A stretch of DNA of 64,000 bases from Patella caerulea (GCA_036850965.1 JAZGQO010000002.1:26932901-26996900); one strand, 5' to 3'. Shown: positions 1-14,689, counted from the first letter of the stretch. The notes: a model not told the origin generated them from the sequence alone. Program-made: numbers and translations.

Positions 1-1
1 T

Positions 2-271
2 AGACTAGATCAAAGAATGTCCATGAGTATCTGTCACGTGTCCCCTCCCGATGGTAGAGGTAGCGGAACAAACACGAAGAAGAGACACTGCGCAAATTTC
101 GACGATTATTTGAAGAAAAAGCAATGTTTGGTCACCATAAAGAATGCCGACGAACTCTGTTTTCAGCGAGCTATAGTCGTCGCTCGTCATTATGCCAACA
201 AACAGGACACGCCTGAATGGGTAAGAGAGAAGAAGAGATTAACCAACAACACAGGACCCCGAACATGGTAG
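2..271 (+). pseudogene. OTU-like cysteine protease (deubiquitinase) N-terminal segment. It is in frame with the pPolB ORF but cut off by TAG at 269-271.
   Basis: Cys-box-like NADELCFQRAIV (D..C.F.RA) lies here. The His-box-like LYLHDRHYDVI lies about 110 aa downstream inside the 332-3673 ORF. Same frame (frame 2), open to the window edge. TAG differs from TGG (Trp) by one base. Confidence 0.55.
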
Positions 272-331
272 ACCAGAAAAACGGAAGCACTCATCGATGC
301 TGTCGGTGGAGCCAGGCAAGCCTGTACGGGG

Positions 332-3300
332 ATGGAAACCTGGGAATTGTACGCCAAGTATTTGGGGGAGCAAGGTTATCAGCTCAACGTTTTCTCTCGG
401 GCCATCTTTGGGAAGGCGATTTATCGGGGAACAAAACACGTCACAGGCACACCAAAACATCTGAACCTGTATTTACACGACAGGCATTACGACGTCATTA
501 CCTCCATGCCCGCCTTTGTAGAAAGGTCGTATTTTTGCGAGACCTGTCAAGTAGGATACGATCATGCCGAGATACATTCGTGTCACGTCATGTGTCATGG
601 ATGTAAGACAGTGGGTCCACCCTGTCCACCTGATCCCAACACAAAGACGTGTTACCGTTGTCATCGTGTGTTTGTGAGCCGCCAGTGTTTCGACAACCAT
701 CTCGCCACCCGTTCCAGAGCCAAGTGCAGTGTATGTTATCGATGGAAGAAATGTGAGAAATGTCAAAAAGAGTGGGACGTCATCAAGGCCAAGCGCAATT
801 TGGAAGAACACCGATGTGGAGAATACGAATGTTCCATCTGCCGAGAGTGGCACACGGCCGAGAAACAGTTTTGTTACATCCAACCACTGAAATCACCCAT
901 CGACATGAATAAAGACCGCAAGACCCAAATGGACAAACTACAGAAATCAACGTTGACCCGCTTCGTCTTCTTTGACTTTGAATGCCAGCAAGATACCGGT
1001 GAACACATTCCCAACCTATGTGTCCTGCAAACCTGCTGTCACTTTTGTATCGACAATCAAGATCCCTGCGAGCATTGCGACACGTACTGGAATCACCAAA
1101 GAGAAATGGTGTTTAAAGGCCCAGACACGCTGGACGATGTAGGAAAATGGTTTTTGCAACTCGCTGCACACGGTACGGTGGTAGATGGTCGGAAACATGA
1201 CAGTCACGAATCGAGTCCCGTGATTGCCGTGGCTCACAACTTTAAAGGTTACGACGGACTGCTGATTTTACAGACGCTGCACAAACATTCCGTGGCGCAA
1301 CCCGAAGTGATTATGAATGGCGGTAAAGCGATGACGATCACTGTCGGTACGGTAAAATTCATCGATTCCCTCAACTTTTTACCGATGGCTTTACGGGACA
1401 TGCCCAAGACCTTTGGCCTGCAAGAACTCAAGAAAGGTTATTTCCCTCACCACTTTAACAGACCGGAGAACGAAGAATACGTGGGCGCCTATCCTCCCGA
1501 CACCGATTACGATCCGGATGGCATGAGTGTGACTGAACGAGAAAAATTTCACGAGTGGTACCAACAACACAGTCACCACGTCTTTGATTTTCGCCAGGAA
1601 ATTCTCGCCTACTGTAAGAGTGACGTCGATGTCCTCCGCCGATGCTGTGGCGTGTTTCGAGAGATATTTCTCATGGACACGGGAATCGATCCCTTCGAAA
1701 AAAGTTTGACCCTGGCCTCTGCCTGCAGTCGCGTGTTACGCACGCACTACATCAAGAAAGACACCCTCGTCGTCATTCCTCGAGCCCTGATGCAAGAGCT
1801 AAAACTTGGTAAGGACTGGCACCGCTTCCAGCCTCGACAACAGTCCAACAAAGCCCTTCGATGGTTGGAATGGGAACAACATCAACAGACCATGGCAGCT
1901 TTCCGAAACCAGACCCCACTACCCAACATTCGACACGCCCGTAACGGTAGTGAATGCCGAGTTGGCCCTTATAGCTTAGATGGCATGGACAAGACCACGG
2001 GTACGGTGTACGAATTTCACGGGTGTGCCTTTCACGGTTGTCCCAAATGTTATCCGGGTCCCGTCCAAGACCTTCAGCATAAACATCCCTACGATCCATC
2101 TCGCAGTATGAGGGACTTGTACCAGCAGACCCAAGAACGTCACCGTCGACTCCAGGAACAGTACGGTATGCAGACCATCCGCGTCATGTGGGAGTGTGAG
2201 ATGGAGGAAGAACGACGCCACGATCCCGAGATGGACGAATTTTTACAAGGCTTGGAAGATCAGCAATGGCCCGCTCCCGAACCACTGATGCCCCGCAACG
2301 CTTTCTTCGGCGGAAGAACCAATGCCATCCAACTGTTGGTGAACGAGTCGGTGGAAGACATGCGCTACATCGACGTGGTGTCCTTGTACCCTTACATCTG
2401 CAAGTACGGTACCTTTCCCATCAAGGAACCCACGATCGTCACACAGCCCGATCAAGACCAGTGGCAACAGTACGAAGGGTTGATCCAGTGTTCCGTCTTG
2501 CCGCCCCGTGGCCTGTACCATCCAGTGCTCCCGTTTCGGAGCAAACAGAAATTGGTGTTTGCCCTATGTCGAAGCTGCGTCGACGAACACATGCAACAAG
2601 GGGAGATTGCCGAATACCAACCGTGTGAGCACACCGACGAACAGCGAGCCTGGGTGGGTACGTTTGTCACCCTGGAACTCAAGAAAGCGGTGACCCTAGG
2701 ATACCAAGTACTGAAATTCTACGAAGTTTGGCACTGGAAAGAATTCAGCACTTACGATCCCGAGGCCAAAACGGGTGGTCTGTTTACTGGGTACATCAAT
2801 CACTACCTGAAGAAGAAGATGGAAAGCAGCGGTTATCCCGACACCTGTCACACCGAAGAAGACAAGACCCGCTTCGTCAACGACGTGTACGACACGGAAG
2901 GTATTCGTCTGGATCCCGCGTCGATAAAACCCAACAAAGGGATGCGGGCGTTTAGCAAGTTACAATTGAACACAGCATGGGGTAAATTCGGACAGAGAGA
3001 CAACTTTCCCAAAACAGAATACATCACGGAGCCCAGCGTCTATTTTGAAAAAATGTTGGACGTGACCCAGACCGTACGAGATGTGCAGTTAGTCAACGAT
3101 AACATGGTCTTGATGGAAACGTTGAAAAAAGAAGAACACGTCGCACCCTGCCCCATCACCAACGTGGTTATCGCCGCCTTTGTCACTGCCCAGGCCCGTT
3201 TGAAACTCTATTCCGTCTTGGAAAAGTTGGGAGAAAGGGTATGCTATTTTGACACCGACAGCGTCATCTACCAATACCACGCCACGTCATGGAATCCCCC

Positions 3301-13467: not shown

Positions 13468-13668
13468 ATGGATCGAAACGATAAAAGATTTTGCGCTACT
13501 TGTCGGGGGTATTACCCCATGTTTAAGGGGAATCGGCCCGATGCCGATTACTTGGTGTGTTTCTGGTGTGGGGTAGATGTGTCGAACACCTGTCATAGGC
13601 GGTCAAAGCATGCAGTCAAATGCACCAAGAAGCCGAATCGGTGGGAGCAGCCGAAGTGCTCCTGCTAA
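13468..13668 (+). CDS. Small Cys-rich (zinc-ribbon-like) protein, 66 aa.
   Basis: CATCRG…CFWCG…CHRR…KCTKK…CSC. Preceded by the TATA box. Confidence 0.4.
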   Translation: MDRNDKRFCATCRGYYPMFKGNRPDADYLVCFWCGVDVSNTCHRRSKHAVKCTKKPNRWEQPKCSC

Positions 13669-13699
13669 CCCACACATTGTGTGGACCAACGGCCCTTTT

Positions 13700-13980
13700 C
13701 AGGGCCAACTTAATCAATGTAAAAGAGTTGTTTCCCCTCCCTCTCTTCCCCTTTCTTCTTCTTTTCTCTCTCTCTCTCTCTCTCTCTCTTTTCCCGCGCG
13801 CGCGCGCGCCCCTCTTCGTACGTCATGCACGTGCAAGGACACGTGCAAGGTCACGCACGTGTCAGGGGTCATTTAGGTCATGCACGTGCTAAAGGTCATC
13901 TAGTTCAAGGTCACGTGCACGCCCATGCACGCACGCGCATGCGTGCACGCACGTGCAAAAAAAATTGCCAGACAGGCGCT
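13700..13980. repeat. Subterminal simple-repeat block: (CT)n, (GC)n and a degenerate ~11-bp minisatellite AGGTCAYGTGCA rich in E-boxes (CACGTG) and AGGTCA half-sites.
   Basis: Direct read. Confidence 0.7.
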
Positions 13981-14689
13981 TATACTACTATGTCCCGGAG
14001 GGTTGGGCCAGTATGGATTTACAGATTTTTGTGGACACCTTGTTCAAATTTACTTGGTCCCACTTTTCCAATAAATGCTTTTCGTTCGATGTTAATTGTG
14101 CACCCCATACCTCTGAGGCATACAAGGTTATCTGTTTAATTATTGCATTGTATAATTTTAATAAAGTATTAGTTGGTAAAGAATCAATAGTGCAAATGAC
14201 TTGCCATGTTTCTATGTTGTAAAATTCAAATATTTTTCAAATATATTTTACCGGGCATGACGCTATTTTTTCATGTGTCCCAAAGTGTGCCGTTGAAAAA
14301 GTCCAACCTGCTGGGTTTCCACCGGGGCCTACCATTGTTAAAGACCTCTTCTTCGAATTAAGCGAATTGTTGAAATGATATGTTAGTAACCTAGTTTTTG
14401 TCGGTTACAATACGCCCTTGTCGGTTCGGTGATCAGTATATAGGCAATATGAATTTATCCACAATCGCACCAATAAAGGACAAAATCTCGGAAACCCCGA
14501 TGCCAGAGGACTAAGATAATGATCATGTATTAAGTGAAGTGTTAAATATGTAGATGGAACCGCCCAATTTTCTTCATTAAACTTAATTTATTATCGGATA
14601 TTTCGAAAGAATCTGAATCTATTGAAAAGTCGACCATGGAGATAAATGAATCAAGTATAAATAAAAACATAACGCTAACGCTACAATAT

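Follow-up and report, generated by a model that had tools for sequence, protein, structure and literature searches.

A defective element, very probably a Maverick/Polinton, with a Death-domain accessory gene in a chromosome of the limpet Patella caerulea

We analysed a 64,000-nt stretch of the Patella caerulea genome (GCA_036850965.1, JAZGQO010000002.1:26932901-26996900), which is referred to below as the window. Its positions 1-13,989 very probably correspond to the right-hand ~14 kb of a germline-integrated, defective Maverick/Polinton (polintovirus, adintovirus-like) element in the limpet chromosome. The six core genes are all present, as found by hidden Markov model (HMM), profile or fold search: the polymerase pPolB, an A32/IVa2-type ATPase, an rve integrase with a chromodomain, a penton protein, a double jelly-roll major capsid protein (MCP) and an adenain-type protease. 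An initial annotation of this sequence had placed pPolB, the rve integrase, the ATPase, the adenain and capsid open reading frames (ORFs) on a single strand, and a direct search confirmed each of them. Its reading of an endogenized Maverick/Polinton with virion and replication modules also stands, except that these modules cannot be called 'full', given three broken core genes and a left part that lies outside the window. The missing part comprises the pPolB N-terminus, the upstream accessory region and the left terminal inverted repeat (TIR). Several features were absent from that annotation, namely a Death-domain ORF, a CCHC zinc-knuckle ORF, an insertion resembling a short interspersed element (SINE), the split frames of the integrase and penton genes, and a stop codon in pPolB. 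The element class is well known, and the Death-domain accessory gene is its sole unusual feature.

Core genes and probable right boundary of the element

Every long ORF with a family signal was found on the + strand in a combined ORF and Pfam scan. The ten longest minus-strand ORFs (108 aa or more) gave no Pfam family match, and minus-strand ORFs were therefore dropped as genes. The core genes, followed by the right terminal region, are:

2-3673, + strand: pPolB, truncated at the 5' end by the window edge, with 332-3673 (1113 aa) as longest intact ORF
5913-6524, + strand: A32/IVa2/FtsK-type packaging ATPase, intact, with Walker A GPTGVGKT and Walker B VLVVDD
8569-9578, + strand: rve (DD35E) integrase with a C-terminal chromodomain, split over two frames
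9851-10899, + strand: penton gene (single jelly-roll vertex protein), frameshifted
11341-12708, + strand: double jelly-roll MCP, intact, 455 aa
12662-13216, + strand: adenain-type (clan CE) cysteine maturation protease, intact, 184 aa
13669-13989, no strand: right terminal region, with a pyrimidine/CT tract, a GC tract, an AGGTCA-type repeat array and then ATACTACT

The intact part of pPolB (332-3673) matched Pfam DNA_pol_B_2 (E = 1e-39) and contains the motifs DFE215, SLYP684, KLQLNTAWG876 and YFDTDS972, corresponding to Exo I, Pol A, Pol B and Pol C. Reading frame 2 extends from nt 2 onwards, but a TAG stop breaks it at 269-271, within an OTU-like N-terminal region. An alignment running across this stop reached residues 143-348 of the intact 1292-aa pPolB of L080, a related metagenome contig (E = 6e-34), which implies that ~140 N-terminal residues lie to the left of the window. 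The Cys/His motifs of the N-terminal region, DELCFQRAIV and HYDVIT, follow a pattern (DELC(F/L)xRAIV and HY..IT) common to L080. No OTU domain was matched by Pfam in this N-terminus; on its motifs, the region is consistent with the OTU-like domain of adintovirus PolBs.

The integrase matched Pfam rve above the cutoff (E = 3.5e-11). For the ATPase and the protease, profiles were needed, because single-sequence searches of the PDB returned only noise or P-loop matches. Four of four ATPase orthologs matched Pox_A32 (best E = 2.4e-7) and three of the four matched Adeno_IVa2, the L080 ortholog clearing the Adeno_IVa2 cutoff. The protease by itself had no Pfam match. Peptidase_C5 was matched by eight of the nine members of its family, and a profile built from the nine sequences retrieved the human adenovirus protease (4piq/1avp, E ~ 4e-5) and S273R of African swine fever virus (ASFV; E = 2.5e-3). 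In this profile, His70, Asp86, Gln116 and Cys123 are invariant and are aligned with the catalytic residues of the adenovirus protease.

The two candidate capsid ORFs of the initial annotation both proved to be jelly-roll proteins, 11341-12708 being a double jelly-roll MCP and 9851-10899 a single jelly-roll penton protein. The AlphaFold model of the MCP has a pLDDT of 87 and a pTM of 0.87, and the protein is 99% identical to a P. caerulea protein named 'Major capsid protein' in UniRef. No close relative of the MCP was found in IMG/VR. In BFVD, the top match by E-value was a protein annotated under bracovirus (26% identity, E = 3e-28), and 'MELD virus sp.' and 'Adintovirus sp.' appeared at ranks 3 and 20, respectively. 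Maverick insertions in bracoviruses are known.

Base composition delimits the element on its right side. Calculated per kb over the whole window, GC content is 0.46-0.53 over positions 1-14,000 and 0.24-0.46 beyond, so that 1-13,989 forms a block of ~50% GC in a chromosome of 30-40% GC. The change is a sharp step, from 0.536 (13,669-13,989) to 0.359 (13,990-14,700), and the contrast with an AT-rich flank that had been described initially is thereby borne out.

The position of the step agrees with the terminal features. In the relative L004, the small ORF downstream of the protease is followed by the same succession of features and by an 11-mer, ATACTACTATG, that is identical to the one in the window; beyond it, the sequences are no longer alike. 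According to our own rough estimate, the probability that windows of such size share an 11-mer by chance is a few percent. Between 13,600 and 14,300, ACTACT occurs only once, at the GC step and inside the 11-mer common to L004; the end motif of vertebrate Mavericks is (AGT)2//(ACT)2 (PMC8097293). The right terminus is thus probably ACTACT at 13,984-13,989, give or take 3 nt, and the predicted hexamer of the right flank is ATGTCC (13,990-13,995), or TCCCGG if ATG belongs to the element.

No TIR pair was present in positions 1-20,000 of the window. L080 possesses TIRs of at least 463 nt, with 91-98% complementarity, which run into the contig end. A TIR candidate in the relative L003 (a 29-nt pair, 76%, E = 0.15) was rejected as evidence. 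Arrays of AGGTCA/TGACCT repeats occupy a terminal or subterminal position in the window (13848-13957), in L004 (5880-6080) and in L080 (1-210), where they form ~117-bp tandem units within the TIR. AGGTCA is a nuclear-receptor half-site, and the arrays may be binding sites for end recognition.

This copy is dead and non-autonomous. Three core genes bear inactivating lesions: the TAG stop in pPolB; a 19-nt deletion at ~8791 in the integrase, right after the first catalytic Asp, as revealed by nucleotide alignment to L004 and L002 (intact homologs have 345-368 aa); and a frameshift in the penton gene, where the frame switches at ~10,093-10,108 and the gene is ~10 nt shorter than its intact homolog. 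The accessory region has in addition received the SINE-like insertion. The MCP, protease and ATPase genes are still intact. The P. caerulea assembly was produced from PacBio HiFi reads and has a quality value of 68; provided that the window comes from it, sequencing errors are an improbable cause of the lesions.

Gene order and related elements

The genes follow one another in the order pPolB, Death and CCHC accessory genes, ATPase, ORF6553, ORF7574/7848, integrase, ORF9610, penton, ORF10896, MCP, protease and small Cys-rich ORF. The same order and strand were found in the relatives L001-L004 and in ~28 metagenome loci recovered with an ATPase profile. Vertebrate Mavericks have a first module pPolB-ATPase-PM-PZ and a second module INT-mCP-PW-MCP-PRO, usually on opposite strands, and in Xenopus tropicalis both modules are on one strand (PMC8097293). 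To the initial annotation, co-directional genes and an integrase in mid-element had seemed unusual for a Polinton. Instead, the order is the canonical two-module one, and the single-strand arrangement recurs in X. tropicalis and in ~30 related contigs. The tandem layout of modules on one strand is a feature of the clade and not an anomaly.

Linkage of the core genes was also conserved. L080 is 17.9 kb long with all ORFs on the + strand, and its pPolB and MCP are 41% and 38% identical to those of the window, both pPolBs belonging to one class. The pPolB, integrase and MCP genes are linked in the order of the window in both L001 and L080, with identities of 36-49%. The initial annotation had mentioned a chimeric assembly as a possibility; it is unsupported, and the fact that pPolB and integrase stay linked in L001 and L080 argues against it. 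In L003, L017, L030, L032 and L042, the same ATPase-to-protease module is present and no pPolB was detected by tblastn with the window pPolB, yet these loci do match Pfam DNA_pol_B_2. Such undetected polymerases fit with the published swapping of pPolB classes between Polintons.

One further locus, L005 of Lottia gigantea (KB202808.1), contains four partial MCP-protease fragments in tandem, 93-98% identical, within 10 kb. Either truncated Maverick right ends are arrayed in tandem there, or the old assembly is at fault; as a source on termini, this jumble of fragments was uninformative.

Besides the core genes, the ORFs found at conserved positions are:

6565-7518, + strand: conserved ORF in the 'PM' position (ORF6553 in the gene order), with a Pro-rich basic N-terminus and a hydrophobic C-terminal segment
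7574-8026 and 7848-8537 (span 7574-8537), + strand: two overlapping conserved ORFs in the 'PZ' position
9610-9888, + strand: small hydrophobic (membrane-like) conserved ORF, 78-83% identical to L002/L004 and 38% to L003
10896-11366, + strand: Lys/Gly-rich basic ORF between penton and MCP, in the 'PW' position, 71% identical to L004 and 39% to L002
13468-13668, + strand: small Cys-rich ORF (paired CxxC) downstream of the protease, with a CRE/CCAAT/TATA promoter-like stretch at 13337-13436

The equivalence of these ORFs to PM, PZ and PW of vertebrate Mavericks is by position only. ORF 6565-7518 is 51% identical to its counterpart in L002 and 43% to that in L001. Neither this ORF nor 10896-11366 had a Pfam match; the composition of the latter suggests that it may encode an amphipathic membrane-active or core protein. 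The ORFs 7574 and 7848 show the same overlap and conservation in L002, and ORF7574 is kept in ~28 loci. Counterparts of the small Cys-rich ORF, 45-46% identical, occupy the same position in L004 (5419-5622) and L002 (7834-8025). This small ORF resembles the zinc-binding 'Oncoid' ORFs of adintoviruses, but is devoid of the LxCxE motif.

Accessory genes and insertions

The region between pPolB and the ATPase, and one segment of pPolB itself, contain the following additional features:

1889-2251, + strand: Vsr-nuclease-like insertion in pPolB, with the motif YEFHGCAFHGC...VMWECE at aa 560-640
3555-4475, + strand: Death-domain accessory ORF, with a C-terminal Death domain at ~4218-4406 and a likely start ATG between 3606 and 3732
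4572-4773, no strand: SINE-like interspersed repeat, inserted with a promoter-like stretch before it and the CCHC ORF after it
4885-5722, + strand: CCHC accessory gene, composed of ORF 4885-5409 with three CCHC zinc knuckles and an overlapping ORF 4916-5722

The ORF 3555-4475 matched Pfam Death with E = 3.9e-10 (40 bits, above the cutoff of 22.6). Among solved chains, the nearest to its domain is the death domain of CRADD (E = 2e-8), followed by FADD, PIDD and RIPK1. The GC content at third codon positions is 0.61 in this ORF, 0.50-0.63 in the genes of the element, and 0.25-0.33 in host exons. The Death ORF is thus similar to the core genes and unlike host exons, which argues for a long-standing gene of the element and against a host exon or a recent capture. 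No homolog was found in L001-L004, in IMG/VR or in the JGI metagenomes, and the literature searched contained no paper joining 'death domain' with 'Polinton'. When the Death, CCHC, MCP, protease and PolB ORFs, along with several others, were looked up by exact sequence, no entry was retrieved from the protein collection.

The neighbouring ORF 4885-5409 matched Pfam zf-CCHC (E = 2.9e-10), and no homolog of this gene was found in L001-L004. Given the overlap, ORF 4916-5722 may be a frameshifted continuation of it. A promoter-like stretch at ~4478-4550 comprises two CCAAT boxes, TGACGTCA and a TATA box. The SINE-like repeat that follows is GC-rich and ~203 bp long, and a 95% identical copy lies on the opposite strand in the host flank (26324-26526). 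ARAGORN and Rfam searches of the whole window gave no matches; the repeat was not recognised as tRNA-related, and a tRNA-derived origin is unsupported.

The slot upstream of the ATPase varies between relatives. In the sister element L002, a BIR gene (E = 1e-21) is located immediately upstream of the ATPase. In more distant relatives, the gene immediately preceding the ATPase is another ORF or pPolB itself, and one of these ORFs has a PP1c-binding (GADD34-like) region; neither Death nor BIR was found at this position among them. In a 51-ORF alignment of the accessory ORFs of metagenome relatives, one matched PP1c_bdg (GADD34/ICP34.5-type, E = 8e-9) and another Endonuclease_7, and region 16699-17781 of L080 matched PC4. 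These PP1c_bdg, Endonuclease_7 and PC4 ORFs are further candidates for host interaction in the clade.

By its domain, the Death protein would most likely interfere with death-fold signalling complexes. A more specific proposal, which we put forward tentatively, is that the segment between pPolB and the ATPase is, in this lineage, an exchangeable cassette directed against cell death, with a CRADD/FADD-like Death protein here and a BIR/IAP protein in the sister element. The Death protein might then be a virus-adapted decoy blocking complexes of the PIDDosome type, or of the death-inducing signalling complex (DISC) type, in mollusc cells, and perhaps the first DD-subfamily protein from a Polinton or adintovirus. 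The occurrence of Death in this element and of BIR in its sister suggests a manipulation of host cell death, as in true viruses.

The insertion within pPolB was compared with the Vsr nuclease. No Vsr domain was detected in it by Pfam, NCBIfam or phmmer against the PDB. A pairwise comparison with E. coli Vsr gave a weak collinear match (E = 0.015), and the Vsr-like character of the insertion is to be taken as a lead.

Copy number, alternative readings and known systems

The element belongs to a family with several members in the genome. Its ATPase is identical to P. caerulea KAK6173475.1, and the product of ORF 7848-8537 to KAK6189085.1, which belongs to a 9-member cluster. At 90% identity, the clusters of these two proteins contain 9-10 P. 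caerulea accessions located on 6-7 large contigs. The family therefore has at least 9-10 loci in the genome, and the 90-100% identity of its proteins across loci indicates a recent amplification.

To the right of the element, the flank is ordinary animal chromosome. Less than 1 kb past the probable right end begins a satellite (~14760-16770) with a 145-bp unit, a 292-bp higher-order repeat and ~11 copies with 73-78% matches, ending in a (CA)n tract; the published PcH-sat of P. caerulea has units of another length, 179 bp. An ORF of 300 aa at 29314-30216 (+) consists of ~49-aa tandem repeats (YKFKVNRILTLA.RASTRFFEVIKGHNSGTNY...) with no credible Pfam family, and is probably a second satellite, of ~147 bp, that is read through. 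A remnant of a Tc1/mariner-type transposase at 36220-37200 on the minus strand (HTH_Tnp_Tc3_2, 8e-12; DDE_3, 7e-5) accounts for the GC peak of 0.46 at 36-37 kb. Two host exons were recognised on the + strand: one at 46734-47378 encodes a voltage-sensor (Ion_trans) segment with an Hv1-like S4 (LRLWRVTRILNG), the other, at 57127-57717, a member of the 3-beta-hydroxysteroid dehydrogenase family (E = 5e-21).

Three other explanations were considered. It could be proposed that the MCP, protease, ATPase and Death ORFs are domesticated host genes under selection, the element being their fossil carrier: these ORFs are intact beside broken neighbours, and BRAKER annotated homologs as genes in P. caerulea. 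However, many dispersed copies are nearly identical, as expected from recent transposition and not from one conserved locus, and intact and broken genes are alike in their virus-like composition, which makes domestication very improbable. Even less credit can be given to a free (exogenous or episomal) adintovirus genome, contaminant or chimera, wrongly joined to host DNA by the assembler. Among the relatives, L080 and others are indeed metagenome contigs without host flank, and the intact MCP, protease and ATPase are 99-100% identical to other copies. Against a mis-join stand the inactivating lesions of three core genes, the host interspersed repeat inserted within the element, the presence of the family, in a HiFi assembly, at 9-10 annotated chromosomal loci spread over 6-7 large contigs, and the coincidence of the junction with a plausible terminal motif. 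Finally, the MCP and penton folds fit proteins of Paramecium bursaria chlorella virus 1 (PBCV-1), ASFV and virophages as well as or better than adenovirus proteins, but an origin from a different class of double jelly-roll viruses, as a piece of a virophage, a polinton-like virus, an adomavirus or a giant-virus insertion, is hardly conceivable with pPolB and an rve integrase, the defining Polinton pair, on one element, a gene order equal to the published Maverick modules, an animal host, and a bracovirus-annotated protein as best BFVD match by E-value.

Several points nevertheless weigh against the reading of the block as an integrated Maverick/Polinton, or against parts of it. The class was assigned from genes, folds and gene order. 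The left end of this copy, with its TIR and its half of the 6-bp target-site duplication, would lie outside the window. Two domain matches fall under their Pfam cutoffs: that of the window ATPase to Pox_A32 (19.6 bits for a cutoff of 22.8) and that of the integrase to Chromo (E = 2.4e-4). The OTU-like and Vsr-like parts of pPolB are recognised by motifs only, and the function of the Death-domain gene is purely inferred. Lastly, no single annotated P. caerulea locus fits all the window proteins, and the window is for this reason regarded as another copy or haplotype of P. caerulea.

Comparison with known systems places the element among the Mavericks and adintoviruses. With vertebrate Mavericks it shares the eight-gene core, the order within modules, the presence of accessory regions and probably the end motif, and most vertebrate copies are likewise degraded (PMC8097293). 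It differs from most of them in that its modules, like those of ~30 relatives, are co-directional instead of opposite and converging, and in that an additional slot for accessory genes separates pPolB from the ATPase. Adintoviruses are associated with animals and encode a pfam03175-type pPolB with an N-terminal Cys/His (OTU-like) region, an rve integrase, an FtsK/A32 ATPase, an adenain, and hexon- and penton-like proteins; they also have IAP and Bcl2 homologs, small paired-CxxC proteins and degraded endogenized copies (PMC8502044). The pPolB type, the integrase, the ATPase, the adenain, the capsid proteins, the small paired-CxxC ORF and the degraded endogenous state are common to the window element. 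Unlike adintoviruses, it had no detectable PLA2X or GasderminX in the window, and its OTU region was not confirmed by HMM; conversely, a Death-domain gene is not mentioned among adintovirus genes (PMC8502044).

A VSR nuclease insertion has been described in the pPolB2 of marine mollusc Polintons (PMC10748475). The present element resembles these in its marine gastropod host, in the HGCxxHGC...WEC insertion in pPolB and in pPolB swapping, whereas its own VSR was unconfirmed by HMM and PDB sequence searches. The solved capsid proteins of the virophages Mavirus and Sputnik and of adenoviruses are only 9-15% identical to the window proteins, and the gene order is different. In contrast to Mavirus and Sputnik, the element is hosted in an animal nuclear genome, and no dependence on a giant virus is implied.

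From the families of its genes, a scheme can be proposed for an intact element. Replication of the linear genome by pPolB would be protein-primed and start at the terminal inverted repeats, and the rve/chromodomain integrase would insert this genome into host chromatin. An icosahedral capsid would be formed by the double jelly-roll MCP together with the penton; the A32/IVa2-type ATPase would package DNA into it, and the adenain protease would mature the particle. The accessory genes of the variable slot between pPolB and the ATPase (Death-domain and CCHC here, BIR/IAP in the sister element) would modulate the host.

The finding itself is a textbook example of a known element class; it adds modest new details in the Death-domain accessory gene and in the AGGTCA-repeat termini. 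Many eukaryotic double-stranded DNA viruses are believed to descend from Mavericks/Polintons, whose virions, to our knowledge, have never been observed. With many near-identical copies, and with intact capsid, protease and ATPase genes, the limpet family of elements is a reasonable place to seek an active, particle-forming polintovirus in a marine mollusc.

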